From NCBI GenBank assembly GCA_027488905.1, contig JAIYAT010000020.1, positions 246,490 to 310,489 on the forward strand: a stretch of DNA of 64,000 nucleotides, written 5' to 3'. Every line of letters begins with the position of its first letter. Position 1 is the first letter of the stretch. A program made the position numbers and the translations under genes. Shown in pieces: positions 47,813 through 64,000 of the stretch. The notes beneath the pieces are model-generated. The model was not told the origin of the DNA. It saw only the letters and a program-made list of their open reading frames with translations, and did not search any database. The stretch comes from Bacteroidota bacterium. Its GTDB lineage: Bacteria; Bacteroidota; Bacteroidia; UKL13-3.

Positions 47813-48709
47813 ATGAGTAAAATTAACTACAATAAGCCTCCTCTTTCCTATACAGATCAAATTATCCAGCTAAAACAGCGTGGACTAATTATTAGCAACG
47901 AGCCTAAAGCACTTCACTTACTTGAGAATATCAGTTACTATAGGCTAAGTGGATATTGGTTTCCCCTTCTAGCTGATAAATTTGCTCATCAGTTCAAACC
48001 TAATTCCACTATTGAAACAGCTTTTAATTTATACTGTTTTGACAGAGAATTGCGTCAACTAATGCTTGCCGAAACTGAAAAAATTGAAGTGGCCATCCGA
48101 GCCAAATTGAGTTACGTTTTTTCGCATGCAAACGGCCCTTTTTGGTTTCAGAACCCAACTAATTTCACTAATCCTGGGAAGCATGCTACCTCATTTGCTA
48201 AAATTGAAGAGGAGTTTCAACGAAGTGATGAAGAGTTTATACATGCCTTTAAGGCAAAATACAATAATCCAATACCTCCCAGTTGGATGACATTGGAAAT
48301 AACATCATTTGGCACCTTATCCATTTTGTACAAGAACCTGAGACCTACCCATCAAAAGCGAGAAATTGCGCACTATTTTGGGTTGCCAGATAAAGTTTTT
48401 GAAACCTGGATTCACAGCATCGTTTACCTTCGTAATGTGTGTGCACACCACACCCGTTTGTGGAATAGAGCCATGAGTATTCAACCACAAATCCCAAGAT
48501 CACCGAGAAAACAATGGTTAAATAATGTAAATGTAGCTAATAACAGAACTTATTTTATTTTAAGTATGGTCGCCTATTTATTGCAAACCATAAATCCAAA
48601 CAATCGGTTTACTGATAAATTTAAAGCGCTTTTACACAAATATCCAAACGTAGATACCAGAGCACTAGGCTTCCCAATTGACTGGGAAAATGAACCACTT
48701 TGGAAGTAA
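47813..48709 (+). CDS. Abi_2 (AbiD/AbiF-like) abortive-infection family protein
   Basis: ...LENISYYRLSGYWFP... and ...YLRNVCAHHTRLWN match the conserved Abi_2-family motifs. Inserted between hsdR and hsdM. Confidence 0.7.
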   Translation: MSKINYNKPPLSYTDQIIQLKQRGLIISNEPKALHLLENISYYRLSGYWFPLLADKFAHQFKPNSTIETAFNLYCFDRELRQLMLAETEKIEVAIRAKLSYVFSHANGPFWFQNPTNFTNPGKHATSFAKIEEEFQRSDEEFIHAFKAKYNNPIPPSWMTLEITSFGTLSILYKNLRPTHQKREIAHYFGLPDKVFETWIHSIVYLRNVCAHHTRLWNRAMSIQPQIPRSPRKQWLNNVNVANNRTYFILSMVAYLLQTINPNNRFTDKFKALLHKYPNVDTRALGFPIDWENEPLWK

Positions 48710-48721
48710 CAAACAAATCAT

Positions 48722-50158
48722 ATGAGCAACATATCAGGCATCATAAAAAGCATTCAAAACATCATGTGGCAAGACACTGGCTTAAATGGCGATGCACAAC
48801 GCATTGAGCAATTGGGCTGGATGCTTTTTTTGAAAATATTTTCGGACAAAGACAAAGAATTAGAGTTACTAGACGACAAATACACCTCCCCCATCCCTGA
48901 TAAATTTCATTGGGTAAAAGAAAAAGGAAATTGGGCAGGTGATGATGAAGGAATGACAGGCGATGAATTGTTGGAGTTTGTAGACAGACAATTGTTTCCT
49001 GCCCTGCGCAATTTGGATTTGAGCACAGGGAACCAACGTGCAGTGATCGTACGAGAGGTTTTTGAAGGCAATAACAACTATATGAAAAGCGGCATCAACA
49101 TTCGCAAGGTGTTGAACAAGCTCAACGAAATTGATTTTAACATTGCCAAAGACCGCCATGCTTTTGGCGAATTGTATGAAACCATTTTAAAGGAATTGCA
49201 AAGTGCTGGAAAAAGTGGTGAGTTTTATACGCCACGTGCCATTACGCAGTTCATTACCGAAACCATAAATCCACAATTGGGTGAAAAAGTATTGGACCCT
49301 GCTTGCGGAACGGGCGGCTATTTGACTTGTGCCATTGAGCATTTAAAGAAACAAGCCAAAAATGTGCAAGAACGCAAAAGCATTGAAGACAATATTGCAG
49401 GTTGGGAATACAAACCTTTACCCTATCTGCTGGCAACAACCAATCTCATTTTACACGACATAGAAATACCCAACATCAAATTTGGCGATGCCTTAGACCA
49501 ACCCTTGAGTAACTTTACCGAAAAGCATCGGGTAAATGTAATATTGGCAAATCCACCATTTGGTGGCATTGTAGCCAATAACAACGAAACTAATTTCCCA
49601 CAAACGTATCGTACCAAGGAAAGTGCCGACTTGTTTTTGATCCTAATGATTCATTTACTAAAACAAGATGGACGAGCAGGAATTGTATTGCCCGATGGCA
49701 GTTTAACAGGCGATGGCGTAAAGCAACGCATTCGCCAAAAATTATTGGAAGATTGCAACCTGCATACCATTATCCGTTTGCCTAATTCTGTGTTTCAGCC
49801 TTATGCAATGGTGGCTACCAACTTATTATTTTTTGACAAAGGTTTGCCCACCAAAGACATTTGGTACTATGAGCACCGCATGCCTGAAGGTTACAAATCC
49901 TACAACAAAACAAGACCCATACAAGCCAAAGAGTTTGAACCCATAACCCAATGGTGGAACAAGCGCACCGAAAGCGATATTGCCTGGAAAGTAAATATTA
50001 AAACCATCATCCAAAGAGGCTATGATTTGGATATAAAAAACCCAACCAAACCCGAAGAGGAAAAGGAATACAACAGTGCCGAATTGATGGAAATGCTACA
50101 CACTTCATTTGAGAAAAGTAATTTCTTGTTGAACCAATTAAAACAAGCGGTGAAATGA
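48722..50158 (+). CDS. hsdM: Type I restriction-modification N6-adenine DNA methyltransferase subunit
   Basis: N-terminal HsdM domain (IMWQDTGLNGDAQRIEQLGWMLFLKIF). SAM-binding LDPACGTGG. Catalytic ILANPPFG. Confidence 0.9.
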   Translation: MSNISGIIKSIQNIMWQDTGLNGDAQRIEQLGWMLFLKIFSDKDKELELLDDKYTSPIPDKFHWVKEKGNWAGDDEGMTGDELLEFVDRQLFPALRNLDLSTGNQRAVIVREVFEGNNNYMKSGINIRKVLNKLNEIDFNIAKDRHAFGELYETILKELQSAGKSGEFYTPRAITQFITETINPQLGEKVLDPACGTGGYLTCAIEHLKKQAKNVQERKSIEDNIAGWEYKPLPYLLATTNLILHDIEIPNIKFGDALDQPLSNFTEKHRVNVILANPPFGGIVANNNETNFPQTYRTKESADLFLILMIHLLKQDGRAGIVLPDGSLTGDGVKQRIRQKLLEDCNLHTIIRLPNSVFQPYAMVATNLLFFDKGLPTKDIWYYEHRMPEGYKSYNKTRPIQAKEFEPITQWWNKRTESDIAWKVNIKTIIQRGYDLDIKNPTKPEEEKEYNSAELMEMLHTSFEKSNFLLNQLKQAVK

Positions 50159-51462
50159 GATTAGAATTTATTGAATTGCCTTTTCTCAGTTTAGGAACAT
50201 CAGGCAAGATTAGAACAGGTTCTGGCTTTAATTCTAGTGATTTTACAACTGAGGGAGTTCCCCTTATAAAAATTGGCAATATCAAAAACAACTTAATAGA
50301 TATCAATGATTGCTCATTTATTTCAGAAAACAAGAAGAAAATAAACTTAACCAAAGAAGATGATTTGTTAATTGCAATGCGAGGAGCCACAAGTGGTAAA
50401 CTTGGTATTGTTTCTAGCCAATTTGCTGACTGCTTTTATGTTGGAAGTATTGGTAATCTTGGAAAAATAAATGAAAAATTGATTTATCGTCCATTTATAA
50501 AATATATTGAACAACAATTATATGATATATTAAAGACCGAAGCAAAAGGAACTGCTACTCCAATGGTTTCAATTGGAATGTTAGAAAAATTCAAATTAAT
50601 TATTCCCAAAACGAAGGAACAACAAGAATATTTATTTGAACTTCTTGAAAGCAGAAAAAGACAAGTTGGCAAACTCTCCACCGAACTCACCCACCAACTC
50701 ACCCTCGTAAAAAAGCTCCGACAGCAATTATTGCAAGATGCAGTGCAAGGCCGTTTCGACTTCGCTCAGGGACCAGAGGAAGACGAACCAGCAAGTGAAT
50801 TGCTAAAAAAGATAAAAGCCGCCCTTCGACAAGCTCAGGGTACGAAAAAAATTAAAGAACTACCACCCATCAAACCCGAAGAAATTCCATTTGAAATACC
50901 TGAAAATTGGGTATGGTGTAGGTTGGGGGAGATAATCACACTAATATCTGGTCAAGACCTAACTCCTTCTGAGTACTCTGACAAAGACAATTTCGGTCTA
51001 CCTTATGTCACAGGTGCAAGTAATTTAGATAAGGGTAATGTAATTTTAAATAGATGGACGAATAATCCAAAATCAATTGCAATTGAAAGTGATTTATTAT
51101 TGACATGTAAAGGTTCAGGTGTTGGGAAAATGGCGATATTAAAAGAGAAGAAGGTGCATATTGCCCGACAAATAATGGCTCTACGAAGTAGCTTCATACC
51201 AAATGAATTTTTAAAAACCTTTTTGGAACTACAGGTTGAAAACTTCAGAGGGAAAGCTAAAAGCTTAATTCCTGGTATTGATAGAGATATTGTATTGACT
51301 TTAACATTTCCGCTTCCTCCATTAGCCGAACAACACCGCATCGTTCAAAAATTAGATGAATTGATGCAGTATTGCAATGAGATGGAAGCAAGCATCAAAC
51401 AAAGCCAAGCGCAAAATGAGAAGTTATTGCAACAGGTTTTGAGGGAGGCGTTGAGGAAATAA
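50155..51462 (+). CDS. hsdS: Type I restriction-modification specificity subunit
   Basis: 4-bp overlap with hsdM. Two target-recognition domains separated by conserved helical spacers (…LVKKLRQQLLQDAVQG… and C-terminal …LAEQHRIVQKLDELM…QVLREALRK). Confidence 0.85.
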   Translation: MRLEFIELPFLSLGTSGKIRTGSGFNSSDFTTEGVPLIKIGNIKNNLIDINDCSFISENKKKINLTKEDDLLIAMRGATSGKLGIVSSQFADCFYVGSIGNLGKINEKLIYRPFIKYIEQQLYDILKTEAKGTATPMVSIGMLEKFKLIIPKTKEQQEYLFELLESRKRQVGKLSTELTHQLTLVKKLRQQLLQDAVQGRFDFAQGPEEDEPASELLKKIKAALRQAQGTKKIKELPPIKPEEIPFEIPENWVWCRLGEIITLISGQDLTPSEYSDKDNFGLPYVTGASNLDKGNVILNRWTNNPKSIAIESDLLLTCKGSGVGKMAILKEKKVHIARQIMALRSSFIPNEFLKTFLELQVENFRGKAKSLIPGIDRDIVLTLTFPLPPLAEQHRIVQKLDELMQYCNEMEASIKQSQAQNEKLLQQVLREALRK

Positions 51463-51486
51463 CCAGTTGAGGTTTAAAAAAAATAT

Positions 51487-52092
51487 ATGCCAATATCAGT
51501 TCAAAAATTAGAAGACACCTTTCAATTAAAATATTTAAAAAGTATTAAATGGGGGAGCACATTTGTTGAAAATAAAAATGGTGTCTATATTATATCTTCG
51601 AGTAAAGACAAAGATTTCTTACCTAAGCATGATGTTGAGATTGTTATCAATGATAAACAGATTGATTTATGGTTAGCTAATGCACCAAACATACTTCTAA
51701 ATGAAAAGACACCTTCCAAAACAGATTTAATAAATCAGCTAAAGAATTTTTGGTTACCTGATGAAACAATACTTTATATAGGAAAAGCTGAAAAGCAAAC
51801 ATTATCAGAAAGAATAGGTCAGTTCTTCAATCATAAATTTGGCAAAAAAAGCCCTCATAAAGGTGGTTATTGGTTAAAACTTTTAAAAAATATAAATGAC
51901 CTTAACATTCATCTATATGAAACTAAGGAATCCCACATTATTGAAGAAGAAATCTTAAAAAAGTTTATAGAACAAGTCTCGGAACCAACAAAATTAAAAT
52001 TAATTGATAAGAACTTATATTTACCATTTGCAAATTTGCAATTACGCTCTGGAGTAATTAAATCACATGGACTTAAATATCATTACCAATGA
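51487..52092 (+). CDS. Hypothetical protein (possible divergent GIY-YIG-like nuclease)
   Basis: 201 aa, 25 bp after hsdS. Carries GVYIIS ... ILYIGKAEKQTLSERIGQFFNH, reminiscent of GIY ... YIG-x-NLxxRlxxH, but the GIY-YIG spacing is much longer than canonical, so this is weak. Confidence 0.3.
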   Translation: MPISVQKLEDTFQLKYLKSIKWGSTFVENKNGVYIISSSKDKDFLPKHDVEIVINDKQIDLWLANAPNILLNEKTPSKTDLINQLKNFWLPDETILYIGKAEKQTLSERIGQFFNHKFGKKSPHKGGYWLKLLKNINDLNIHLYETKESHIIEEEILKKFIEQVSEPTKLKLIDKNLYLPFANLQLRSGVIKSHGLKYHYQ

Positions 52093-52181
52093 AATGTATA
52101 AAATGTAAAATAAAGTGAAACAGAAATTAATAGGAATTGCCTGAGTTTACAAAAGTGGAGTTGACAAAATAAAAATAGCCT

Positions 52182-53279
52182 ATGAATAATAAACAAGCAA
52201 ACATATGTTTTTTATTGGGAGCCGGAGCTAGCTACCAGGCCTTGCCAGTTGTAAATGAGATTCCTAGAGAACTAGAAAAGATGATGGAATTTATTGTGAT
52301 TTTTGAGTTAAACAAATCTGCTCTAACCTATGATCCAATAAGAGACCAGTTAAATAATTTTTATTCAAAGTTAGAAGAAATAAAAAAGCACAGTTCTATA
52401 GATACATTAGCAAGGAAGTATTGGCTAAAAAGAGAAACATGTGAACATGGTACAAGCGAATATGTTTATTGGAATAAAGAATATGAATACATCAAAAGGA
52501 TTATAAGTTGTTTATTAACCTACCGTCGCTTAACTATAACTACATTATCTGATAATTTTTCAAATGAAATTACAACATTTGATAACAAGCAAAGGATGGC
52601 CTTTAAGCTTGATCCAAGATATGATAGTTTATTGGCATCTATACTAACCCCTAAGTTGCGCTTGCCAGAAAACATTAGCATTATATCTTGGAATTATGAT
52701 TTACAATTAGAACAGGCCTTTTCCTTTTATGAAGGCCAATCCGATTTAATTGAAGTTGGAAAGAAATTAAACATAGGTTACGAAACCCATGAGGAAAGTT
52801 CAATTATTAAATTAAATGGAACTGCTTGGTTTAATCCAGCAGGTTCAATACAGGCGTTTTATGAATACAACACAGAATCACATAACGTATTTTGGAATGC
52901 ATTAAAAGATTCTCACGATCCTAACATAAAAACAGGGATTAAGTTTTCTTGGGAACAGGACGAAATAATTTCACATTATAGAGAACTTGCAGCAAAAAAA
53001 ATAACTGAGGCAGACTTTGTTATTGTAATTGGGTATTCTTTTCCAATTTTTAATAGAGAAACAGATATTCAAATATTTTCAAAATTACCATCAAGTGCTA
53101 AATTAATCATACAAGGTCCTGAAGAACAAGGAAACAGAATTGTGAGTCAAATGGACAGTATTAAGAAAGGTTTGAGTAAAAAAACGAGTGTCGTTTCCAA
53201 CCTTGACCAATTTTACTTACCTAACGAATATTGGCAACCAAATAACTTGAGTTCAGCTAAAATCTATTCAGTTTTTTAA
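52182..53279 (+). CDS. SIR2-like (SIR2_2 / PF13289-type) domain protein, candidate NADase defence effector
   Basis: N-terminal ICFLLGAGASYQA (xLGAGAS NAD-binding). IISWNYDLQLEQAF (NYD motif). C-terminal DFVIVIGYSFPIFN (IGYS motif). At the position of the usual KLHGS catalytic His the sequence reads KLNGT. Confidence 0.6.
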   Translation: MNNKQANICFLLGAGASYQALPVVNEIPRELEKMMEFIVIFELNKSALTYDPIRDQLNNFYSKLEEIKKHSSIDTLARKYWLKRETCEHGTSEYVYWNKEYEYIKRIISCLLTYRRLTITTLSDNFSNEITTFDNKQRMAFKLDPRYDSLLASILTPKLRLPENISIISWNYDLQLEQAFSFYEGQSDLIEVGKKLNIGYETHEESSIIKLNGTAWFNPAGSIQAFYEYNTESHNVFWNALKDSHDPNIKTGIKFSWEQDEIISHYRELAAKKITEADFVIVIGYSFPIFNRETDIQIFSKLPSSAKLIIQGPEEQGNRIVSQMDSIKKGLSKKTSVVSNLDQFYLPNEYWQPNNLSSAKIYSVF

Positions 53280-53395
53280 GATTCAATTTAAGTTAAATTA
53301 ATAGAATTTATATATTCTAAGGAAATACAAGAAACAATTTCATTGATAGTAGTTAATTTAGCGAAAAATATTAGAAATGGAAATAGATTTATAAA

Positions 53396-53740
53396 GATAT
53401 TGGGGGCAGAGGGTCGAAATGTTACGTTTTGCAAAATTTTACCACGTCTAGGAAATACGCTAGCTGGGAAAGTCAATACTATTTTCCAAATTTTCCTGTA
53501 AAGGAAACAATGAGGAAAGTGTTATCAACAGATTAATAACTGTTGAAGCCTTGAAGTTGTGTTTGCGGATGTATTTTCTGAGCATATATAATGTGTTTAT
53601 GGATTTAAGTACAAAGATAACAATTTCTATACCTGAATTGAGTAGCGTTGCCTCCCTTATAAAAGGGTTAAAGCTTCGACAGAGCATGTACATTTCAAAC
53701 CTGCTACATACTATTTTACTAGTATCTGCCCCCTTTTTTT
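53396..53740 (+). ncRNA. Candidate structured ncRNA (retron msr/msd-like or DRT-associated) between the SIR2 and RT genes
   Basis: A ~470-bp non-coding gap. The GC-rich 9-nt inverted repeat GGGGGCAGA (53402-53410) / TCTGCCCCC (53725-53733) brackets ~315 nt and ends 18 nt before the RT start codon, like retron a1/a2 repeats. Internal hairpins include ttttcctgtaaaggaaa and cccttataaaaggg. The small ORFs 53288..53742 look spurious. Confidence 0.3.
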
Positions 53741-53751
53741 AACTTGATAAA

Positions 53752-55275
53752 ATGGAATTAGAAAAGTGGTTTAAAACAAAAAAGTATCCTCATATAGGTT
53801 TACCAATAACAATCAAAGATTATTATTGGGTAAAAGAATATGTTGAAAATTTTGATAAAGTTCGATGCCATAGTTTTCTTCCATTAATACATAAAATTAT
53901 TTTACAAAGAAGATTCAGAGCAGACAATTCTTTACCAGATAGAAACCCAAGTGGAAAGAGGAAAAGATTTATTGACAAGCCAAAAGTTCGAGATATTTTC
54001 TTCGCTTCACATTTAGATTCTTTAGTATTTTCAAAGTACAACGAAATATTGGCAACTGCATATGAAAGTTATATTGAAAATAAGAATTTCAATGAATCTG
54101 TAGTTGCATACCGAAAAATTTCAATTTCAAAGGGTTCTGAAAATAATAAATGCAACATTGATTTTGCAAAAACTACTTTTGAATTTATTCAAAAGAACAA
54201 TACAAAAAATCTTACTGCTATTGTTTCAGACGTTACTGATTTTTTCCCAAGTCTGAATCATAAAATCTTAAAAAAACAATGGACAAGTGTTTTAAACGAA
54301 ACTACTTTACCCAAAGACCATTATAATATATTTAAGGCTATAACTAATATCAAATACATTGAAGGCGACCAGTTATTTGAAAGTTATGGCAAAACTATGA
54401 TTGTTGAAAATGGTGTTCCAAACTCTTCAACTAAAACTACTTTTAAAAGGAAGGAAATAAAAAGTAGTAAACATTTTAAAGAAAAAAATTCCGTTGCTTA
54501 TTGTGAAAAGGATGAATTCCTAAAGAACAATTTAAATTTAATTAAATCAAAAAACAACATAGTTGGAATACCTCAAGGAAGTCCAATCAGTGCAACATTG
54601 GCAAATATCTATATGTTGGAGTTTGATCAAGAAATATTTGATATTGTTTCTTCAATTGGTGGATTTTACCAAAGATATAGTGATGATTTAATTATTATTT
54701 GTGAGCAACAATTTGAAGATGATATTATTAAACTAATCAGAGATAAAATTGATAACCTTGTTGATTTGAAAATAGAACCAAAAAAGACTAAGATCTTTCG
54801 TTTTGAGGAAGTAAAAGGTAAATTTATTGGATTTGAAATTGATGAAAAAACTAAAGCACCAAATCATAATAAAACACTGGCTTATTTAGGATTCTCATTT
54901 GACGGACAAAGGGTTTTGATAAAAACTTCTGGTTTTTCAAAGTTCTATAGAGCAATGAAAAGCTCGTTTAAAAAATCAACTTCTTTAGCAATACATAGTA
55001 AAAATCCCGACAGAAGTTTATTCAAGTCAAGGCTATACAAGCGATTTACCCATAGAGGAGCAAAACGAAAACTTATTTATAGACCATCAAAGGCAGACAA
55101 AAAAGTTTATGAAAAAACGAAAGAGTATTATTGGGGAAATTATCTTAGCTATATAAACAAAGCAAATGAATCAATGAAATCAATAAACGGTGACAATATT
55201 ATCAAAAGGCAAAGCAGAAAGTTTTGGAAGAAATTTAATGACTTAATGAAATTTCATGAATCAAGACTTAAATAA
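53752..55275 (+). CDS. Reverse transcriptase (defence-associated / retron-like RT)
   Basis: RT motif 1-2 RKRFIDKPKVRDIFFASHLDSLV. Motif 3 AIVSDVTDFFPSLNH. Motif 4 GIPQGSPISATLANIYMLEFD. Motif 5 YQRYSDDLIIIC (YxDD). Motifs 6/7 LKIEPKKTKIFRF. About 90 aa insertion between motifs 3 and 4. C-terminal ~140 aa extension. Confidence 0.85.
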   Translation: MELEKWFKTKKYPHIGLPITIKDYYWVKEYVENFDKVRCHSFLPLIHKIILQRRFRADNSLPDRNPSGKRKRFIDKPKVRDIFFASHLDSLVFSKYNEILATAYESYIENKNFNESVVAYRKISISKGSENNKCNIDFAKTTFEFIQKNNTKNLTAIVSDVTDFFPSLNHKILKKQWTSVLNETTLPKDHYNIFKAITNIKYIEGDQLFESYGKTMIVENGVPNSSTKTTFKRKEIKSSKHFKEKNSVAYCEKDEFLKNNLNLIKSKNNIVGIPQGSPISATLANIYMLEFDQEIFDIVSSIGGFYQRYSDDLIIICEQQFEDDIIKLIRDKIDNLVDLKIEPKKTKIFRFEEVKGKFIGFEIDEKTKAPNHNKTLAYLGFSFDGQRVLIKTSGFSKFYRAMKSSFKKSTSLAIHSKNPDRSLFKSRLYKRFTHRGAKRKLIYRPSKADKKVYEKTKEYYWGNYLSYINKANESMKSINGDNIIKRQSRKFWKKFNDLMKFHESRLK

Positions 55276-55468
55276 AGTGCCAATGCCAAAGCCATACATT
55301 TGCAAACCACAAAAGCCAGCCTTAATGCCAAAGCAACAAGGTAACGTACTCCTTCCCAACCGCAATACAGGATAAATTGAAGGCGAGTCTTTAATAAAAC
55401 CTGAAAGTATTGTAGTTGAATTAAAAAAAATAATATTTAAATTCATTACTTGCAATTTTTTATTTCTT

Positions 55469-56116
55469 TTGATTTTAAATCCTCATTATAATAAAGCAAT
55501 GACAAACAGGTCAGAAACCCTATGGGATAAGTCAAATATCTCCTTACTAAATTACCAAAAATTCATCAACAAAAAAGCAGATAAGTACCAACTTACAATT
55601 ATAGATTTGTTTTACATTTCTAACTTTAAAGGTGGGAATTCTACCATCAATGAAAGTGAAGAATTGATAAATAAGAAATTATTAAAATATAGTGAGCAAA
55701 TGAGGGAAATAGATAGTGATTTTGGTTCAACGCACCTTAAAGAACTTTCTAATGAATCACTGAATTCATTATGCAGGCAGGCAAAAGATATTCTGAAGAA
55801 TGGAGATGAAAATGATTTTGCCATAGATGGCTTTAAATCTTCCTTTATCGCTACTTTATTGCATGTGTATTTCCCAAATTTACTGCCAATACTAGATAGA
55901 AGGCTTTTGATAAACCTTGGTTTGGTAGAAGGAAGTGACCTAAACAATGCAAGACAAGTAAAAAATATTGGTGAATTTTACGAAAGGCTGATTAGGAAAT
56001 TTTACGATATCCAAGTTCAATCAGATAAATCAATTAGAGAAATTGATAGAGAATTTTTTATTATACAATTGCCAGATTGGGCAACAAAACCTAACAACTC
56101 AAAAAATGATGAATGA
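55469..56116 (+). CDS. Hypothetical protein downstream of the RT
   Basis: 215 aa, very AT-rich ORF with no recognisable motifs. Possible accessory component of the RT locus. Confidence 0.35.
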   Translation: MILNPHYNKAMTNRSETLWDKSNISLLNYQKFINKKADKYQLTIIDLFYISNFKGGNSTINESEELINKKLLKYSEQMREIDSDFGSTHLKELSNESLNSLCRQAKDILKNGDENDFAIDGFKSSFIATLLHVYFPNLLPILDRRLLINLGLVEGSDLNNARQVKNIGEFYERLIRKFYDIQVQSDKSIREIDREFFIIQLPDWATKPNNSKNDE

Positions 56117-56399
56117 TTACAGGAAGTTTTTATTAGAAGCTATCAAAGGACTTAAAGAGTCGCAGGAACTAATTTTTTCCAATGCCATTAACGTGGCAAT
56201 GAGTAGCGAGATGAAAGAATACGATGAACTTTTTGAATTGGGCGATAAATATGTATTTGACATCAAACAATTTGAAGATTCAAAAGATGCCAATGTTCAA
56301 CATTTAGTTACTTTGGTTAAATCTTTAAATTCGACATGTGATTCAATTATTAATATTAATGCGATCACAGATGAGGAACTTGAATCGATTGAAGAATAA
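56105..56399 (+). CDS. Small hypothetical acidic protein
   Basis: The likely start is MMNDYRKFLLEAIKG, overlapping the upstream stop by 11 nt (translational coupling). Internal start of ORF 56043..56399. Confidence 0.3.
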
Positions 56400-56420
56400 T
56401 TTTAATTGAAAACCTTAAAT

Positions 56421-56712
56421 AATGCCCCAGCGGGGCAACCTGTTTGTAGAACCGAAATAATCACAATTTAATTAGCTCCGTAGGAGCGACCTGTTAATAA
56501 TTACCAACAAACAGAACGCTCCTATAGAGCTGTAAAAGCAATAATTTATAATATGCCCCATCGGGGCTAATTGTTTGTAGAACCGAATCAATCACAATTT
56601 AATTAGCTCCATAGGAGCGGCCTGTTAATAATCCCCAATAAACAGAACGCTCCTATGGAGCTTTGTTTAAATACAAATCCTTTCCTACAAACAGGATGCT
56701 CCTATGGAGCTT
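56421..56712. repeat. Two tandem ~113-bp hairpin-rich repeat units (56421-56532 and 56552-56665) plus a partial third (56681-56712)
   Basis: The units are about 85% identical. Each contains the GC hairpins gcccc(a/t)(g/t)cggggc and (a/c)gctcc(g/a)taggagc(g) / cgctcctat(a/g)gagc, and the inverted pair ctgtttgtag...caaacag. Confidence 0.85.
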
Positions 56713-56923
56713 TTAAAAACGCATCTTACACGGTTTATTACCTATTGTTTCAGCCCACAACCACCCCAAAACCTTTGGTAGAAACTGTTTGGTTCAAACA
56801 AATTGGCGCTTTAGCTTTTCACATTTCTATGATTTAATTTTCAGGTTTTTAGGACAGTGAGAGGAGCGGTTTTAGCAATCTAGCTTAATTTGCATTAGGG
56901 GCAATTGTAAGAAGTCCATGGTC

Positions 56924-56993
56924 GATAGTCGATAGTCCATGGTAGCAGTGAATTGAACTATCGTCTATGGACTATCGACTATTGTCTATTGAC
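56924..56993. repeat. ~70-bp imperfect palindrome with internal direct repeats (tcgatag x2)
   Basis: gtccatggtcgatagtcgatagtccatggtagcag...ctatcgtctatggactatcgactattg: about 18 bp of the arms are exactly complementary (atggactatcgactat). Confidence 0.7.
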
Positions 56994-57257
56994 TTTGGTA
57001 CCATTTATTTTACAAAAAGGTTCTTTCAAAAATATGACCGTACCATTGATCAAATGGTGCAAGCCGCCAGAAGTGGCAAGCAAAATATTGTTGAAGCTAG
57101 CATGGCCTCTTGCACGTCTAAAGAAATGGAAATAAAATAAGCTAAACAAATAGTGACCAATGCGACTGCGGCGCAGTGGTGGCCACAGTCCCTAGAATTA
57201 GAAAACTACCAAAACTAATTAGCACGTAATAATAAGCAAAAAAAATAAACCCCCACC

Positions 57258-60200
57258 CTATTTCACCTCATACACCACAAACTTAATGCGCTCTTGGCTG
57301 CCTTCTTTTGTGGTAAGGGTTAGCATATAGTTACCTGCTTTTAGGTGGCCTAGCTCGAAGTTTTGGCTTTGGTTCAACCCGAAATACTTATTGCCTTCCC
57401 AAGCTAACCTACCCGCAATATCATAAACTGCCAATTTACAATCTCCAAGTTCATTTAGTGCCTTCACATAAAAGCTTCCGTCATTTGGGTTAGGATACAA
57501 TTGTAATCCTTGTTGCGCAAGGGCTTGGTTCAAGCCAACCGGATTAGGATTACAAATTGAATCGTCTACTACTTTTACCACCAAACTAAATGAATCGCGG
57601 CAACCCGCATCCGAAACACTGGTTAAGGTTACTTTGTAATTACCCACCTGATTATACTTTTTACCATAAATGGAAGTGTTCAAAACATCTGTGTTTCCAT
57701 CTCCAAAATCCCAAGTGGTGCCATTGATAAATCCTGAACCTATGAGGTAAGAAGCATTTACAAAATTATAGTTTTGAGTAAGCAAACATTCTACGGTATC
57801 TAAGGTTACAAAGCGCGAAACTGGTTTTGGTTTACCTGTATTATTTACTTGTAAAAACAAGGTATCAGAAATACTGCTGCAACCTTTTGCATCAATTGCG
57901 GCCAATACTACCGGGAAATTACCCGTAAAGGCATAGGCATGAAATACACTCGAATTTTTAACCAAAGGGGTTGAATACCCATCCCCAAAATCCCATAAAT
58001 ACTCAACGGCATTCGAACTTAAGGCATTAAATCTATATCCAGTATTACAAGGTGCACCCGTTTGTAAGGTAAAGGTAATGGCAGCACCCGGACCAGATTG
58101 GTCAATCACATTAATGTTTTTGCTAATCAACCTGCGACATCCATTGCTTAAGGCAACTTCTAACACAACTGGGAATACTCCGCCATTCTTATAAGTATGA
58201 CTAACATCGGTTGCAATGGAATCCTTACCATCTCCAAAAGTCCAAAAGTAGGAAGCGTTTAAGGTCGACTCGAAACTCAAGTTGGGTTCAAACTGAACTG
58301 TTTTAACACATGGCAATTGTGTGGCAACAAAATCTCCATTAACATCAGAGATGATAAAATTGGAAGAGAAGGTATCTGAACACAAGTTTTCAACTGCAAC
58401 TACTTTTAAGGTATGTTTTCCTTCACTTAAGCCATTTAAAACAAATGAGGTTCCTAACACTTGTGGGGCATTATTGTCTAAAATAAAATAAGTGTCTGTC
58501 ATGCCTGTACTTAAATTTACAAGCTGCCTGCTGTTTGAGCAAGTATCTGTAATGGCTAAACTAAAATCTGCTTTAGGACCATCAAAACCATACAAGGTAT
58601 CTAAAGAAGATAAAGAAGAACACAAGCCTTTTTTGGTTACCAATAACTGAACATACCCCGTATCTGTTTTGTCAAAGGCTACTCTTTGAACCCTCGTGCT
58701 GGAGTCTGTCCAATATTTTCTGTCTCCTAACCATAAGTAGGTGTAATCAGCGCCATTAACTAAAGGTGTGAGTGTAAATACATTTTGGCAATTGTTGGCT
58801 TGAACCAAGAAAGATGAATTGGGAGAATTAACAATTTCAATATTCTCTTGATACGTAAAAGTATCATTGATGGTAAGGCTAACTGCATAAACACCATCTG
58901 CTGCATACGTGTGTGAAGGAGAAGCTAAATTTGAAGTATCCCCATCTCCAAAGCGCCATTTGTAGGAAGTGGCTAGTATGGATGAATCTAAAAATTGAAC
59001 TGTTCTGTTGTTACAATTAAAACCCGTTACGTTAAAATTTGCTACCGGAATAGGCAATACTTCTATATTGGCAATGGCAGTATCCATGCAACCTGTAGAA
59101 CCTACCACGGCCAACATAACTTGGTATTTCCCAGGATTTGCAAACCTCCTATTAAAGACAAAAGAGTTTACCGAATCAATGGTACCATCCCCAAACAACC
59201 AACGATTAGAAACTACCCAACCAATGCCCAAAGAAGAACTGTTATTTAAGAAGTTAAAAGAATGGTCCACAAAATTTTGAATAGGGTCATTTGGCAAGAA
59301 AGAAGCAATTGGACCATAACTGCCAAATGGTAAGTTGATAGTTCTGGAAACCGTGCTGATACAACCATTTTTATTAGCAATTAAAATCACCGCTAAATCT
59401 CCTGTATCAGAAAATGTTTTAACAGGGCTCAAACGATTGTCGGATGTACCATCAGGGAAATTCCAAGTAAAGCGCATGGCGGTATCTGCGGCGCTTAAAT
59501 TGCTAAACTTAATTCTATTGCTGCAAGAATTTGGTGCAATGCCATAGGTAAAATCTATTGGCAATTGGGTTGAACCAAGTCCGGCAACAATAGGCTTCTT
59601 AATACTAACCGCACAACCACTTTCTGAGGTAGTGGTTAGAATTACGGTATCCACTCCAGGATTGATAAAATTAAACACTGGATTGGTAGCATTTGAACCT
59701 CCTTTTATGGGCGAACCAAACTGCCAAGCATAACTCATTCTAGCCAAAACATTGGTAGTGGAGAGGTTTTGAAAACTCACTAATTGATTGCAATTACTTG
59801 CTATAAATTCAAAATTTGGGGTAGGTATAGAAATATTAATAACATCTGCAACGGTATCTGCGCAATTGCCATTGTACACCGCCATTCTAATTAAATGGTA
59901 ACCAAAAGAAAGGTTATTAAGTGCAGCACTAGCACCTATTGAAACATAAGGCGCACCATCTAAACTATACGTATAAGATAACAAGCCAGGACTACTTAAG
60001 TTATTTATCACCCTGTTAGTAGAGCAATAGGTTTGCCCCACAGGAGGAACAACCTCAAAAGCTGCTGTGGCAGAAGGCACAAAAACAGCCGCATTAAAGG
60101 TTAAGGGAGTTGCATTGATTGGGCATCTTCCATTAGAGGCAACTTGAAGGGTAACGGTTTTTAATCCAGCACTACTATAACCCCTGCTGGGCACCCTGAG

Positions 60201-63200
60201 GAAAGTGTCACTTCCAAAACTGCCACTTGAAAATCCCCAATGGTAGTTGTATTGATTACTAATTGGCGCGCCAAAAAATGAATATACATTGTCACATGCC
60301 GCAACCGCAGATAGTGTTCCAACTACTGGCGTGGTAGCAACCGTAACCATTCTTTCACTGGAATCGGTTCCGTTAATGATTAACCTAACCCTGTAAATGC
60401 TATCCTTTGCATAAAGATGGGCTGGGCTGGCCAAGGTGGAAGAATCGCCATCGCCAAAATACCATTTGTAGGAAACCACCAAGGTGGAAGAATCTCTAAA
60501 TTGAACCAAGCGATTGCTGCAGGCGTTTTGAACAAAACCAAATTTTGAGGATACCACTGGGTAAACATTGATATTGGCTGTATAAGTATCTATGCAACCT
60601 AAGGTATTGGTTGCGCTTAAAGAGATTAAGTAATTGCCTGGAGAAGCGTACCTTTTGTCGTAGATAGAGCTGTTAGTTGAATCTAAAGTTCCATCTCCTA
60701 AATTCCATTTATACTTAATGTTCCAAGCATTATTCCCTAAGTGTGAACTGGTATTTACAAAAGAAAAATTGTGATTATTTATAGGCATGCTCACTTGGTT
60801 CAAACTAAACCTTGCGGCTGGACCAAAAGCGCCAGAATCTATTTGAATGATTTTAGTGGCAGTAGAACTACAACTACCATTGCTAACCGTTAGGTTAACT
60901 GTATAGGTTCCTAACTTAGCAAAACCATGTATTGGGTTTGCGAGGTTACTAGTAGTGGTATCGCCAAAATCCCAAGCATAAGAGAACCCAGTACCCGTGG
61001 TATTGGTAAATTGAATGATGCTTTTACAGGTTGTGCTTGCCAGACTAGTGTTAAAACTAGCATTTGGACCAGTACCCGTTCCCACCACAACTCTTCTTCC
61101 AATGGTGGCAGAACAACCACTAGTACTGGTTAAGGTTAAGAAGGCAGAATCTGCTCCCGAAACCCCAAAGTTAAAACTTGCATTTGGCGTATTGGCAGTT
61201 CCTTTGAGTGGTCTCCCAAAAAACCATTGGTAGCTTAACGCACCATTGTCTGTGCTAGAAGAGGTGGTTAAAAAATTAACTTGTTGGTTGCAAGAACTAG
61301 GAATTGCAATAAAGGATGGTATTGGAGCGCTAATGGTGAAAGGGAAATAAAGGGTATCAGAACAAAAGCTTTTGCTGCCCACCACCTGAATGAGGTGAGT
61401 GCCTGGTGTAAGTGCATTAACCGTGTCTAGGGCATTCAAAGTATCGAAAGGGCCATTGTCTATGCGCCACAAATAAAGGTTTGCGCCTACCCCATCGTTT
61501 CTAATGATTCGCGTTGTTGCACATAAGTTGTTATTTGGTGCATACACAACGGCTTTGGTAGAAAATCCATTTGGAGCGATGGTGGGTGTAAAAATAAGTT
61601 GCGAAGGAGAAATAGGACATTTGCCCTTATTGAAAACTGTTAGTGCTACACCCGTTGGGCCAGGCGTAGTATAGGAGCGTGTCGGAATTCTAAGGGTGGT
61701 ATCACTGCCTGTTCCGCCCGTAAATTGCCAATGATAGGTATAATTGTTTCCAGCAGGTGCGCCAAAGAAATTATATTCATAAGCACAATTTACTTGGTAA
61801 CTGATAGCAGCAACAGGCGCATGATTAATAATCTCGATGTTTTTACCCGCGGTAAGGTTTCCATTGATGGTGAGTTTAACCAAATAAATAGAATCTTTTA
61901 AATAGGTATGCACGGGGTTTCTTTGGGTTGAGGTATCGCCATCGCCAAACTCCCAAAGCCAAGAACCAGCAAAGTAAGAAGAATCTAAAAATTGAATGGT
62001 TCTGTTATTGCAACTAGGCGCTTGAAACCCAAACCTTGCATATACGTTTGGTTCAACCCGAACCCCTTTGTAAATAGTGTCTTTGCAACCCAAATTGTTG
62101 GTGGCAATTAAACGTACCCAATAATTTCCAGTATCAGGATACACTTTGTTATAGACAAAAGTATTGCTCGAAAAACTTCCATCGCCAAACTCCCATTGGT
62201 AATTGCTATTAAAGCCTGCACCGAGGTGTTTGCTGCTATTGGCAAAATCAAAAGATTGATTGGTGAAAAGTTGCGTATCTTGGTTAATACTAAAATTAGC
62301 AAACGGTCCTCTGGCTGCAGAATCTACCCTTATGGTTTGCAAGGAAGCGGTTGTACAAGTGCCATTGAAAGCGTATAAAATCACCAAGTAATTTCCAGTA
62401 TCTGCATAAGATTTAGCAGGATGGGTTGAAGTGCTAAAGGTGCTATCCCCAAAGTTCCATAAGTAAGAAGTAGCGCCATTGCTAGAAGTATTGGTAAATT
62501 GAATACGATTGTTACAAGGCTGATTGGCCTGCCAAACAAAGGATGGATTTGGTGTGGTGCCATTGCTTATGCTGATGGCTTTTCGGACGGTATTTGAACA
62601 GCCATTTGCGGCAGTTACAGTCAACGTAACCGTATCAATACCTCCGCTTCCAAAATTAAACAAAGGGTTAGGCAAAGTAGAAGTACCTTTTTGGGGTGAA
62701 CCAAAAGTCCAAAGGTAACTCAATGCTAAAGGCTCTTCGGCAAATGAGGTATTGGTAAATTGAACCGTGGCATTACACGTGCTCGCTTGCTCGTTAAAGG
62801 CAGCCGTGGTATTAGAAATCACAAAACTTGTTACCGCGGTATCAAAGCAAATTCCATTGTGTGCGGCTAAACGTAGGTGGTAAGTTCCTTTACTTAATCC
62901 ATTTAAATTGAAAGACGCAGTAATGGGTAAAAACGGACCGCCATTTACACTTAAAGTATAAGCAGATAGGCCGCTGCTGCTTGTATTGGTTATAATTCTA
63001 CTATTAGAACAAAAGTTATTTCCTGGTGCACTCACTGCAATTCCTGCTACCACAATTGGGGCATAAAGGTTCGGTTTGAACCTAAGCGCATTTGAAGCAA
63101 CTGAACAACGATTACCAGCCGTAAGGATAAGTTGTACTTGAGCTGTATCAGCAAGGAGATATTTTCGCGTGGCAAGTCTTGAGGAAGAATCAGAACCCGG

Positions 63201-64000
63201 CAATCCACCATTAAATATCCAACGATAAGAATAATAACTGCCAGAAGGAGCCCCATTAAAGGTATATTGAAAATTACAATCGGTGCTAGCGGTAAGACTT
63301 GGTGCAGTTGGGGTTGCAAAAACTGATATACTTCTAGTTGTTGCTATGGTTCCATTGATGGTTAAACTTACCAAGTACACAGAATCTTTAGAATAGGTTT
63401 TAGTAGGATTCTTTAAAGTAGAAGTAGTACCATCCCCAAAATTCCAGAGGTAAGTAGTTGCAATAAGAGAAGAATCATAGAATTGAACCGTACGGTTGCT
63501 ACAAGAATTGAGGTTGAACCCATACCTAGGCAAGGGCGTATTTACCACTAACATGGAATAACTTTGTTGCACCAAGCAAGTTGGCGAAGCCATTCCTTGA
63601 ACTGTAAAAAAGTAATTGCCTGTGGTATTGCTCGTTCCTGAAATTGCGCCAGTACTTGGATTTATAAGTAAACCCGTTGGCAGCGCACCCGAGGAAATGC
63701 TCCAAGAAAGCTGACTTAATTGTGGGGCATTTAAGTTAAAGTTATAAGGAATTCCGGCCACAGCATCATGCACGTAATTGGGTTGAATGCTTAAGCCATC
63801 ACAAGAAACCGAAGCTACTAATGGCACAATGACATCTGCAGCACCGGATGATTTTATGGTTGCTGTGCCATTGATGATACCGCCATTTGTATTTGAAAAA
63901 CATCTAACATAAATGGTTTGGTTTACGATACCACTTATCGGTGAGATGTTCAACGTATCGGTAAAACCAAAATCTCGGTTCAAGGATATTTGAAAACCAG
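57258..64000 (-). CDS. Giant PKD-repeat cell-surface protein with a T9SS C-terminal sorting domain (partial; N-terminus lies beyond the window end)
   Basis: At least ten PKD-type repeats with the W/Y-x-FGDG-x-x-S core (WNFGDGTTS, WEFGDGDTS, WDFGDGNTD, ...). The C-terminus LYPNPNDGSFYVKALNELGDCKLAVYDIAGRLAWEG...GNYMLTLTTKEGSQERIKFVVYEVK is a T9SS CTD. The ORF is open to position 64000. Confidence 0.8.
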   Translation of the reverse strand, partial: GFQISLNRDFGFTDTLNISPISGIVNQTIYVRCFSNTNGGIINGTATIKSSGAADVIVPLVASVSCDGLSIQPNYVHDAVAGIPYNFNLNAPQLSQLSWSISSGALPTGLLINPSTGAISGTSNTTGNYFFTVQGMASPTCLVQQSYSMLVVNTPLPRYGFNLNSCSNRTVQFYDSSLIATTYLWNFGDGTTSTLKNPTKTYSKDSVYLVSLTINGTIATTRSISVFATPTAPSLTASTDCNFQYTFNGAPSGSYYSYRWIFNGGLPGSDSSSRLATRKYLLADTAQVQLILTAGNRCSVASNALRFKPNLYAPIVVAGIAVSAPGNNFCSNSRIITNTSSSGLSAYTLSVNGGPFLPITASFNLNGLSKGTYHLRLAAHNGICFDTAVTSFVISNTTAAFNEQASTCNATVQFTNTSFAEEPLALSYLWTFGSPQKGTSTLPNPLFNFGSGGIDTVTLTVTAANGCSNTVRKAISISNGTTPNPSFVWQANQPCNNRIQFTNTSSNGATSYLWNFGDSTFSTSTHPAKSYADTGNYLVILYAFNGTCTTASLQTIRVDSAARGPFANFSINQDTQLFTNQSFDFANSSKHLGAGFNSNYQWEFGDGSFSSNTFVYNKVYPDTGNYWVRLIATNNLGCKDTIYKGVRVEPNVYARFGFQAPSCNNRTIQFLDSSYFAGSWLWEFGDGDTSTQRNPVHTYLKDSIYLVKLTINGNLTAGKNIEIINHAPVAAISYQVNCAYEYNFFGAPAGNNYTYHWQFTGGTGSDTTLRIPTRSYTTPGPTGVALTVFNKGKCPISPSQLIFTPTIAPNGFSTKAVVYAPNNNLCATTRIIRNDGVGANLYLWRIDNGPFDTLNALDTVNALTPGTHLIQVVGSKSFCSDTLYFPFTISAPIPSFIAIPSSCNQQVNFLTTSSSTDNGALSYQWFFGRPLKGTANTPNASFNFGVSGADSAFLTLTSTSGCSATIGRRVVVGTGTGPNASFNTSLASTTCKSIIQFTNTTGTGFSYAWDFGDTTTSNLANPIHGFAKLGTYTVNLTVSNGSCSSTATKIIQIDSGAFGPAARFSLNQVSMPINNHNFSFVNTSSHLGNNAWNIKYKWNLGDGTLDSTNSSIYDKRYASPGNYLISLSATNTLGCIDTYTANINVYPVVSSKFGFVQNACSNRLVQFRDSSTLVVSYKWYFGDGDSSTLASPAHLYAKDSIYRVRLIINGTDSSERMVTVATTPVVGTLSAVAACDNVYSFFGAPISNQYNYHWGFSSGSFGSDTFLRVPSRGYSSAGLKTVTLQVASNGRCPINATPLTFNAAVFVPSATAAFEVVPPVGQTYCSTNRVINNLSSPGLLSYTYSLDGAPYVSIGASAALNNLSFGYHLIRMAVYNGNCADTVADVINISIPTPNFEFIASNCNQLVSFQNLSTTNVLARMSYAWQFGSPIKGGSNATNPVFNFINPGVDTVILTTTSESGCAVSIKKPIVAGLGSTQLPIDFTYGIAPNSCSNRIKFSNLSAADTAMRFTWNFPDGTSDNRLSPVKTFSDTGDLAVILIANKNGCISTVSRTINLPFGSYGPIASFLPNDPIQNFVDHSFNFLNNSSSLGIGWVVSNRWLFGDGTIDSVNSFVFNRRFANPGKYQVMLAVVGSTGCMDTAIANIEVLPIPVANFNVTGFNCNNRTVQFLDSSILATSYKWRFGDGDTSNLASPSHTYAADGVYAVSLTINDTFTYQENIEIVNSPNSSFLVQANNCQNVFTLTPLVNGADYTYLWLGDRKYWTDSSTRVQRVAFDKTDTGYVQLLVTKKGLCSSLSSLDTLYGFDGPKADFSLAITDTCSNSRQLVNLSTGMTDTYFILDNNAPQVLGTSFVLNGLSEGKHTLKVVAVENLCSDTFSSNFIISDVNGDFVATQLPCVKTVQFEPNLSFESTLNASYFWTFGDGKDSIATDVSHTYKNGGVFPVVLEVALSNGCRRLISKNINVIDQSGPGAAITFTLQTGAPCNTGYRFNALSSNAVEYLWDFGDGYSTPLVKNSSVFHAYAFTGNFPVVLAAIDAKGCSSISDTLFLQVNNTGKPKPVSRFVTLDTVECLLTQNYNFVNASYLIGSGFINGTTWDFGDGNTDVLNTSIYGKKYNQVGNYKVTLTSVSDAGCRDSFSLVVKVVDDSICNPNPVGLNQALAQQGLQLYPNPNDGSFYVKALNELGDCKLAVYDIAGRLAWEGNKYFGLNQSQNFELGHLKAGNYMLTLTTKEGSQERIKFVVYEVK

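Follow-up and report, generated by a model that had tools for sequence, protein, structure and literature searches.

What does a GC-rich inverted repeat that brackets non-coding DNA directly upstream of a reverse transcriptase (RT) gene stand for: the ends of a retron, or something else? The question is raised by a locus in a 64,000-nt stretch of a Bacteroidota genome (assembly GCA_027488905.1, contig JAIYAT010000020.1, positions 246,490 to 310,489), hereafter the window, in whose own coordinates all positions are given. An earlier sequence-only reading of this DNA had likened the repeat to the a1/a2 repeats that flank the msr-msd of retrons, and had named as an alternative that several DRT systems require an upstream structured non-coding RNA (ncRNA). 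It is the alternative that is borne out here: the locus is a Bacteroidota example of the DRT2 system described in 2024, not a retron. The inverted repeat is probably the terminal helix (P1a) of an ncRNA of about 335 nt (about 53402-53740), which would serve as partner and template of the downstream DRT2 RT and be made into a tandem-repeat neo gene.

The RT matches the Drt2 models of PADLOC with E-values of 1.8e-138 and 5.5e-91, whereas the retron RT models of the same collection reach only about 1e-11 (best 4.6e-11). Among PDB entries, the KpnDRT2 cryo-EM chains 9c0i, 9lje and 9lv7 match best (E 1.6e-49, residues 5-444), with group II intron and retron RTs at only about 1e-6 (best retron 3e-6). 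Pfam annotates RVT_1 as the sole domain, and the active-site residues Y309, S310, D311 and D312 are invariant among 15 RT homologues. More than 1100 database proteins match the RT at E ≤ 1e-20, and the named ones belong almost all to Bacteroidota, such as Flavobacterium, Kordia, Polaribacter, Dyadobacter, Algoriella and Belliella. By these matches, the protein belongs to the DRT2/UG2 clade and not to that of the retrons.

The inverted repeat has the geometry that the sequence-only reading had given it. It consists of GGGGGCAGA at 53402-53410 and, 314 nt farther on at 53725-53733, the exact reverse complement TCTGCCCCC, in a spacer of 31% G+C; the 3' arm ends 18 nt upstream of the RT start codon at 53752 and runs directly into seven T residues (53734-53740). 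When the 472-nt intergenic spacer was shuffled with its dinucleotides kept, 58% of the shuffles contained a perfect 9-nt inverted repeat, whatever its composition, but none of 2000 contained one with at least seven G/C positions. The minimum free energy fold of 53396-53751 is closed by this very stem (z = -4.09; 0/100 shuffles equally stable).

To place the repeat in a comparative frame, we aligned the regions upstream of the RT gene from 79 loci that encode RT relatives at 40-85% identity. They include a close set of 38 loci (RT identity of at least 61%) and a group E of nine loci at 48% RT identity; helix pairs were counted on MAFFT alignments (A3 for the fold of the 38 loci). Three metagenome-assembled genomes in the sample, L002, L010 and L042, carry a Bacteroidota-type DRT2 under the labels Gammaproteobacteria, Variovorax paradoxus or Proteobacteria, which probably reflects mis-binning or horizontal transfer. 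Across the 38 loci, everything between the 5' arm and the RT start can be aligned, with a mean column identity of 72%, and the sequence 5' of the arm is unrelated between loci. The arms co-vary: the pair GGGGGCAG/CTGCCCCC of the window is represented in homologues by the compensatory pairs GGGGTCAG/CTGACCCC, GGGGACAG/CTGTCCCC, GGGCCAG/CTGGCCC, GGGGCGGG/CTCGCCCC, GGGGGCAA/TTGCCCCC and GGAGGCAG/CTGCCTCC, and the clade with 48% RT identity has GGGTCGAG/CTCGACCC, with at least eight different compensatory pairs inside the 38-locus clade. More distant subclades have dissimilar arms (e.g. GGGCTGG/CCAGCCC, GGATTGAG/CTCAATCC and TATGGCTGG/CCAGCCATA) that keep their position some 300-366 nt 5' of the RT start, with a T-run directly after them. 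Altogether, a 5'/3' stem adjoining the T-run is found in 77 of the 79 loci, built from 41 different arm pairs, and it measures at least 8 bp in 68 loci, as against 9 once the 5' region is shuffled. Thus, both the folding and the covariation in homologous loci that had been proposed as checks speak for the repeat, and the covariation strongly supports a genuine long-range RNA helix.

Inside P1a, the RNA is predicted to continue with a second helix (P1b) and the hairpin of the 5' handle, followed by a template of 153 nt between the repeats AUAC(C)-1 and AUACC-2, and by a 3' domain in which P1b and a further helix, Px, cross, so that this domain is pseudoknotted. In alignment A3, the proposed structure as a whole is 91% paired, compared with 36-44% when the partners are slid, and 14 of its pairs are changed on both sides, a value that 0/500 shuffles reached. 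Three doubly changed pairs fall in P1b (GC/GU/AU at 16/14/8; AU to GC; UA to CG), which group E builds from GGC/GCC and GAAC/GUUC, and at pair 57/66 of the handle hairpin, 20 loci have AU and 18 have GC. The two internal stem-loops seen earlier (53492-53507 and 53654-53667) both exist and have stems that change compensatorily, the low automatic pair count of the second (47%) being due to alignment register. Less remains of the priming-type G run noted behind the 5' repeat. The run is present (53411-53413), but GGU 53412-53414 pairs with ACC 53699-53701, so it offers no free branching G: in 38/38 loci, P1b pairs G53412 with C53701 and G53413 with C53700, and position 53411, between P1a and P1b, is G, T or A across loci.

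Four loci (L024, L025, L027 and L028) have an extra stem-loop of 12-16 nt (GGUU..AACC; A3 columns 302-317) in the loop of 3'-domain hairpin 2 and 4-5 additional nt between P1a and P1b, which suggests that the scaffold tolerates insertions at those places. We also considered whether GGUCGRAAU might instead pair with AUUUCUAUACC, a stretch that contains AUACC-2, as an analogue of Klebsiella SL2. This pairing is 98-100% formed in the 38 loci without any double change and is not kept in group E, where P1b compensates; we rejected it and put it down to the resemblance of the two 3' sequences. A search of 52000-57500 with Rfam cmscan (E ≤ 1) gave no match within 53280-53751.

The Klebsiella DRT2 system offers a precedent for what such an RNA may do. 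There, a 120-nt template between two ACA triplets is copied repeatedly, and the antisense strand of the resulting concatemer contains a junction-split promoter and a stop-less open reading frame (ORF) (bioRxiv 10.1101/2024.05.08.593200; PMC12039810); the ncRNA begins with a handle hairpin at the 5' side, goes on with a template that is only loosely held and has an intricate pseudoknotted 3' region (Wilkinson et al. 2024, PMC12039810). At our locus, the candidate jump sites are the two copies of AUAC(C); in most relatives the first copy reads AUACC, in the window AUACU. The two lie 153 nt apart in the window and, over the close set, 147, 150, 153, 156 or 159 nt apart, always a multiple of three (38/38), and the reverse-complemented, concatenated unit lacks an in-frame stop in all 38 loci. 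Group E behaves alike, with an ATACC unit of 144 nt, again a multiple of three, and an endless antisense frame in 9/9 loci, and the ATACC pair is invariant over these 47 loci, down to 48% RT identity. Stops per unit amount to 0.00 in the -1 (neo) frame and to 0.55-6.5 in the other frames (2.4-6.5 in four of them). Inside the template, eight distinct gap runs occur, and each measures 3, 6 or 9 nt, as against runs of 1, 2, 5, 15 or 16 nt, among others, in its flanks. In the window, the minus strand is free of stops from 53463 to 53738 (276 nt), an openness found in 1.5% of shuffles. Finally, the ATACC pair is recovered by an unbiased scan for direct repeats (4 nt or longer) whose unit length is divisible by three and which give an endless antisense frame and a junction promoter. 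The sequence evidence for a Neo-type template is as complete as sequence alone allows.

Sister clades follow the same rule with another repeat. In groups B, C and D (L035-L077; RT 43-49% identical), an ATTC..ATTC repeat lies about 225-245 nt 5' of the RT start, with a spacing of 126-144 nt (mostly 129) that is always a multiple of three and an endless antisense frame in 26/28 loci; the ncRNA's 3' terminus differs in these groups (..GCCACGACC..). As a positive control, we ran the annotated drt2 locus of the Photobacterium damselae plasmid pPHDD1 (L080; NZ_CP065043.1, 92638-95237; positions 440-660), which belongs to the Klebsiella clade and whose RT is 52% identical to that of Klebsiella. The scan returned a single solution, a 111-nt unit that is delimited by AGAT repeats (at 442 and 553) and whose junction forms TTGACA-N17-TATAAT.

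Two other readings of the template region were discarded. A 10-nt perfect direct repeat, ATACTATTTT (53476-53485 and 53708-53717), is spaced by 232 nt, which is not a multiple of three and, were the repeat used for jumping, would break the neo frame; its second copy sits in a 9-nt insertion common to the window, L033 and L042 only, which makes a 6-bp hairpin (ATACTA/TAGTAT) out of a minimal loop. A second ORF on the plus strand (53464-53739, stop-free over 276 nt) is open in 24/38 loci, compared with 20.3 expected (maximum 27) from shuffled codons of the minus frame, so that its openness is a side effect of the codon composition of the minus frame.

Joining two units head to tail creates a further signal. 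The primary sigma factor of Bacteroidota recognizes TTTG at -33 and TAnnTTTG at -7, and sigma-70 boxes are non-functional in this phylum (PMC2483708, PMC7366714, PMC6847099). Two joined units read ...ATTTGGAAAATAGTAT/AGAAATTGTTATCTTTG... (the slash marks the junction), that is, TTTG, 20 nt and TATCTTTG. The motif TTG-N20-TAnnTTTG spans the junction in 33/38 loci, and in the remaining five the -7 box deviates at a single position. The chromosomal arrangement leaves the -33 element out of register, and there the minus-strand ORF ends after 41 codons at 53462-53460. With a G at -5, the predicted transcription start is unit position 21, which lies 22 nt 5' of a conserved in-frame ATG. The leader is A-rich, with TAAA(T/A) just 5' of the ATG in most loci, and has no Shine-Dalgarno sequence, which fits the Flavobacteria mode of initiation without such a sequence. 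The predicted Neo repeat, MLRKYIRKHNFKASTVINLLITLSSLFPLQENLENSIEIVIFVLKSINTLY, comprises 51 residues, and 38/38 loci encode differing but alignable versions. A single-sequence AlphaFold2 model of four Neo repeats is all-helical, with two helices per repeat (predicted local distance difference test, pLDDT, 72.5; predicted template modeling score, pTM, 0.46). Directly observed are the helices, the repeats, the spacing in multiples of three, an endless frame, a promoter motif at the junction and the ATG. That the junction promoter is of the Bacteroidota -33/-7 type strongly supports, on comparative grounds, the view that the selected function is to have the concatemer transcribed.

From these elements, a mechanism can be proposed in which the DRT2 RT would copy the 153-nt template until it reaches AUAC-1 beside the handle hairpin. 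The 3' end of the complementary DNA (cDNA; ...GTAT) would then re-anneal to AUACC-2 beside the pseudoknot, and synthesis would repeat in rolling-circle style, giving a head-to-tail concatemer of 153-nt units with the predicted junction ...AGTAT/AGAAATTG (in longer form ...GAAAATAGTAT/AGAAATTGTTATC...). Upon phage infection, a second strand would be made, and each junction would build a sigma-ABfr promoter from the -33 TTTG of one unit and the -7 element TATCTTTG of the next. Transcription would begin about 22 nt before the conserved ATG and enter the stop-less 51-codon repeat, the neo gene, whose putatively alpha-helical product would arrest growth. We infer cDNA synthesis, template jumping, the phage trigger and toxicity from Klebsiella DRT2; the role of the U-run is likewise putative. 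On balance, we lean toward a general form of this proposal, in which Bacteroidota DRT2 would carry out RNA-templated gene synthesis of the Klebsiella type with every signal rebuilt: a 5-nt AUACC jump site (AUUC in the sister clades), a sigma-ABfr promoter that exists only at junctions, a start codon without a Shine-Dalgarno sequence, and a terminal helix plus U-run that sets the 3' end.

The last of these signals deserves a closer look. In Klebsiella, one promoter serves both the ncRNA and the RT, which are somehow separated, and the ncRNA uses its 3' terminus to prime the cDNA (bioRxiv 10.1101/2024.05.08.593200; PMC12039810); hence, a helix that fixes the 3' end would matter. A standard scan revealed no local terminator hairpin, which leaves P1a with its U-run as the sole element resembling a terminator between ncRNA and RT gene; a sigma-70 scan gave nothing useful. 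We infer that P1a sets and protects the ends of the ncRNA, separates it from the RT mRNA as a long-range, terminator-like element and holds the RT-binding scaffold. In the Photobacterium control, the last element of the ncRNA is a local hairpin, CCCAAAGGGA..TCCCTTTGGG, with TTTT after it. Since this gammaproteobacterial relative closes locally before its U-run, long-range closure seems to be a trait of the Bacteroidota DRT2 RNAs.

Several points weigh against the interpretation developed so far. Everything beyond the RNA fold and the sequence constraint rests on analogy with Klebsiella. The boundaries of the template depend on a repeat of 4-5 nt together with promoter geometry, and in the window the first repeat, AUACU, leaves only 4 nt of microhomology. 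Variability at third codon positions is not significantly raised (codon-position entropy, p = 0.19), although this test does not discriminate, which is unsurprising because the template bases also form RNA hairpins and the promoter. Px is near-invariant (five pairs fixed, one CG/UG/UA), so that the covariation support for the pseudoknot is weak. A search for TAnnTTTG 5' of the P1a 5' arm found no canonical promoter, and only a loosely conserved AAUAAAGAUUUU occurs there. The Neo model derives from one sequence, the other four models have pLDDT values of 34-52, and a Foldseek search of the model against the PDB gave no match below E 0.4. Moreover, the 3' end that primes the cDNA in Klebsiella would here sit locked in P1a, and our model gives it no route to the template. 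Two further ideas were rejected: a GUAU just 5' of the 3' arm, which as an RNA primer would mimic the cDNA end, is not conserved (it is missing in L011, L015, L017, L019-L024 and others), and neither is the A-rich stretch after AUACC-2 with which the U-run might pair (GAAUUG in the window).

How do other explanations fare against this evidence? A DRT2 ncRNA with other template boundaries, or with another product such as a cDNA that acts untranslated, is unlikely but has a concrete candidate. In the closest relatives (L001, L002, L004, L005, L007, L009, L033 and L042), a second repeat, CAATTTC, delimits a 141-nt unit that also keeps the frame open and yields a TTG-N20-TAnnTTTG junction, which counts against our choice of boundaries. 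Its copies overlap the ATACC sites (equivalent window positions 53480-53486 and 53621-53627). This solution is confined to those relatives, and the window itself lacks its -33 TTG, whereas the ATACC pair extends unchanged over all 47 loci; and translation is favored by the conservation of the ATG and by the lack of stops in 38/38 loci. We regard as very unlikely that the region is purely a cis-regulatory leader, in which the stem and T-run would either act on the RT gene as a terminator or attenuator or else terminate the SIR2-like gene upstream, and the RNA would be no template. The GC-rich stem followed by T7 so close to the ATG would suit such a role, as would the fact that no separate RT promoter is visible. 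The stem, however, is not local, spanning 314 nt, the upstream gene differs at every related locus while the 335-nt block always accompanies the RT, and a leader would carry no frame-preserving antisense constraint.

The antisense constraint could also belong to an ordinary small-protein gene that is expressed from the chromosome without reverse transcription, either as the 77-residue ORF at 53460-53693 on the minus strand or as 41 residues from the ATG at 53585. Such an ORF is indeed present within the long stop-free stretch of the minus strand, which few shuffles match. Beyond the ATACC repeats, however, the open frame is lost in more distant loci and indels are not multiples of three; the -33 element is in register only at the head-to-tail junction, and in 38/38 loci the frame closes into a cycle, a property that a linear gene could do without. 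This makes an ordinary antisense gene highly improbable. Least credible of all is a retron-like element, with the repeats as a1/a2, the enclosed RNA as msr-msd and a G after a1 priming a branched multicopy single-stranded DNA (msDNA). An inverted repeat that brackets the ncRNA, with its 3' arm abutting the RT gene, is common to retrons and this DRT2 ncRNA and hence does not discriminate between them, and the similarity of the RT to retron RTs (E 1e-11 in PADLOC, 3e-6 in the PDB) is weak, the E-value for DRT2 being better by more than 120 orders of magnitude. The Gs that follow the arm take part in the covarying P1b, no conserved effector gene lies beside the RT, and the multiple-of-three rule, the endless antisense frame between the direct repeats, the junction promoter and the ATG have no role in a retron. 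The combination of a DRT2 RT, paired Gs, a missing effector and antisense coding constraint leads us to expect concatemeric cDNA as the product rather than branched msDNA, and the a1/a2 interpretation is therefore abandoned in favor of the DRT2 ncRNA.

The neighborhood of the module adds little that is shared. None of the window's neighbor genes (a SIR2-like 365-residue protein, a 201-residue ORF and a downstream 215-residue ORF) recurs in any of the 79 related loci, and the module thus consists of the ncRNA and the RT. In the window, DRT2 sits in a defense island that extends upstream over 47813-53279 (Table 1). On the 3' side of the RT, two tandem copies of about 131 nt (87% identical) and a third, partial copy after them occupy 56415-56718 and 56912-56995; each unit holds a long hairpin (AGCTCCATAGGAGCG..CGCTCCTATGGAGCT), and a separate palindrome of 29-31 nt consists of GTCGATAGTC-like repeats. 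Weak matches to miRNA families in the Rfam scan of 52000-57500 correspond to hairpins in this region. Farther on, 57258-63983 (minus strand) encodes a 2241-residue protein with 12 PKD domains and a C-terminal sorting domain of type IX secretion, a domain that places the host in Bacteroidota.

Table 1. Features of the DRT2 locus and of the defense island upstream of it, in window coordinates.
Feature	Coordinates	Strand	Basis or remark
AbiD/Abi_2 protein	47813-48709		defense island
Type I HsdM	48722-50158		defense island
Type I HsdS	50155-51462		defense island
201-residue ORF, no match	51487-52092		defense island
365-residue protein, weak SIR2 similarity	52182-53279		Aga_SIR2, E 5.8e-8
P1a 5' arm (GGGGGCAGA), terminal closing helix	53402-53410	+	compensatory variants in homologues
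P1b 5' strand (GGU-C-GAAAUGU), pairs with 53690-53701	53412-53422	+	92% of cells paired
5' handle hairpin (CCA..CUAG / CUAG..UGG), ends 8 nt 5' of template	53442-53467	+	93-100% paired
AUAC(C)-1, template 5' boundary, proposed end of a cDNA round	53476-53480	+	ATAC invariant in 38 loci
Proposed template, one 153-nt unit (51 antisense codons)	53476-53628	+	spacing rule, endless frame, indel sizes
-33 promoter element TTTG	53487-53490	-	20 nt 5' of -7 element only in head-to-tail joined units
Template hairpin 1 (UUUCC-UGUAAA-GGAAA)	53492-53507	+	compensatory stems UUCAC/GUGAA and AAUUC/GAAUU; loop indels of 3, 6 or 9 nt
Template hairpin 2 (CAACAG-N8-CUGUUG)	53526-53545	+	97% paired; closing pair CG, UA, UG or GU
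Template hairpin 3, holds complement of neo start codon	53580-53598	+	93% paired; 3 pairs doubly changed
Predicted neo start codon ATG (unit index 43)	53583-53585	-	in-frame ATG in 38/38 loci; index 43 in 36
-7 promoter element TATCTTTG (TAnnTTTG), 9 nt inside unit	53612-53619	-	match to Bacteroidota consensus
AUACC-2, just 3' of template, 8 nt 5' of Px; proposed re-annealing site for cDNA 3' end (..GTAT)	53629-53633	+	ATACC invariant in 38 loci and group E
Px 5' strand (GUAGCG), pairs with UGCUAC 53702-53707, crosses P1b	53642-53647	+	100% paired
3'-domain hairpin 1 (CCCUU-AUAA-AAGGG)	53654-53667	+	stems CCCUU/AAGGG, GCUCU/AGAGU, GCCUU/AAGGC, GCCAU/UUGGC
3'-domain hairpin 2 (GCUU-CGACA-GAGC)	53673-53685	+	98% paired
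P1b 3' strand (ACAUUUC-AA-ACC)	53690-53701	+	pairing with 53412-53422; group E variants
Px 3' strand (UGCUAC)	53702-53707	+	pair count on alignment
Lineage-specific small hairpin (AUACUA-UUUUAC-UAGUAU)	53708-53725	+	9-nt insertion only in window, L033, L042
P1a 3' arm (UCUGCCCCC)	53725-53733	+	stem in related loci
T7 run after closing helix; likely ncRNA 3'-end/termination signal	53734-53740	+	T-rich run in 77/79 loci
DRT2 (UG2) reverse transcriptase, 507 residues, intact YSDD active site	53752-55275	+	PADLOC, Pfam, PDB, homologue alignment

For annotation, a GC-rich 5'/3' stem with a T-run just 5' of a UG2 RT should be taken as the borders of an ncRNA and should not be called a retron. Template, jump repeats, endless ORF and junction promoter can be read from sequence, in 47 Bacteroidota loci with ATACC and in 26 more with ATTC, and the coordinates of the template and its signals are exact enough for experiments in Flavobacterium or Bacteroides. 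To our knowledge, the features specific to this clade (the AUACC jump repeat, the 144-159-nt unit, the Bacteroidota junction promoter and the terminal long-range helix) have not been described. Tang et al. 2024 called Neo annotation in divergent clades "more challenging" (bioRxiv 10.1101/2024.05.08.593200); if our proposal is true, it would settle the doubt whether divergent DRT2 clades make any Neo protein, and it would show independent evolution, or retuning, of the split-promoter trick for two RNA polymerase holoenzymes that differ greatly.

The locus resembles several known systems in part. It shares with retron msr/msd an inverted repeat that brackets the template RNA of an RT, with the 3' arm next to the RT gene, and both are cases of defense-associated reverse transcription; it differs in its RT clade, in the lack of a free branching G and of an effector gene, and in the predicted product, a repeated coding concatemer instead of a single branched msDNA. 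Like a Rho-independent terminator, P1a is a G+C-rich helix with a U-run directly after it; unlike such a terminator, its strands are 314 nt apart, the standard scan sees nothing local, and the role in termination is here predicted from sequence. The ncRNA also recalls telomerase RNA and the DRT10 ncRNA (PMC12632851), in which a 5' helix bounds the template, a pseudoknot follows, and repeats are added by realignment of a short repeat, a comparison with telomerase that Wilkinson et al. have drawn for DRT2 (PMC12039810). In this case, the likeness is conceptual and does not imply membership, the template being 153 nt instead of a few nt and the predicted product protein-coding.

The closest counterpart is Klebsiella DRT2. 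From this system the window clade, which is known from its sequences alone, differs in the jump repeat (AUACC, 4-5 nt, versus ACA), in the unit (144-159 nt, 153 here, versus 120 nt), in the junction promoter (TTTG-N20-TAnnTTTG versus the sigma-70 boxes TTGACA/TATAAT), in its A-rich leader without a Shine-Dalgarno sequence, in the closure of the RNA by a long-range 5'/3' helix and U-run, in an RT that is about 80 residues longer, and in a predicted Neo repeat of 51 residues. Common to both are the RT family, an ncRNA directly 5' of the RT gene on the same strand, the order of handle hairpin, template and pseudoknotted 3' domain, a short direct repeat that flanks the template with its first copy inside it, a unit that is a multiple of three, a stop-less ORF antisense to the ncRNA, a promoter split across the junction, and perhaps the alpha-helical nature of the predicted product.

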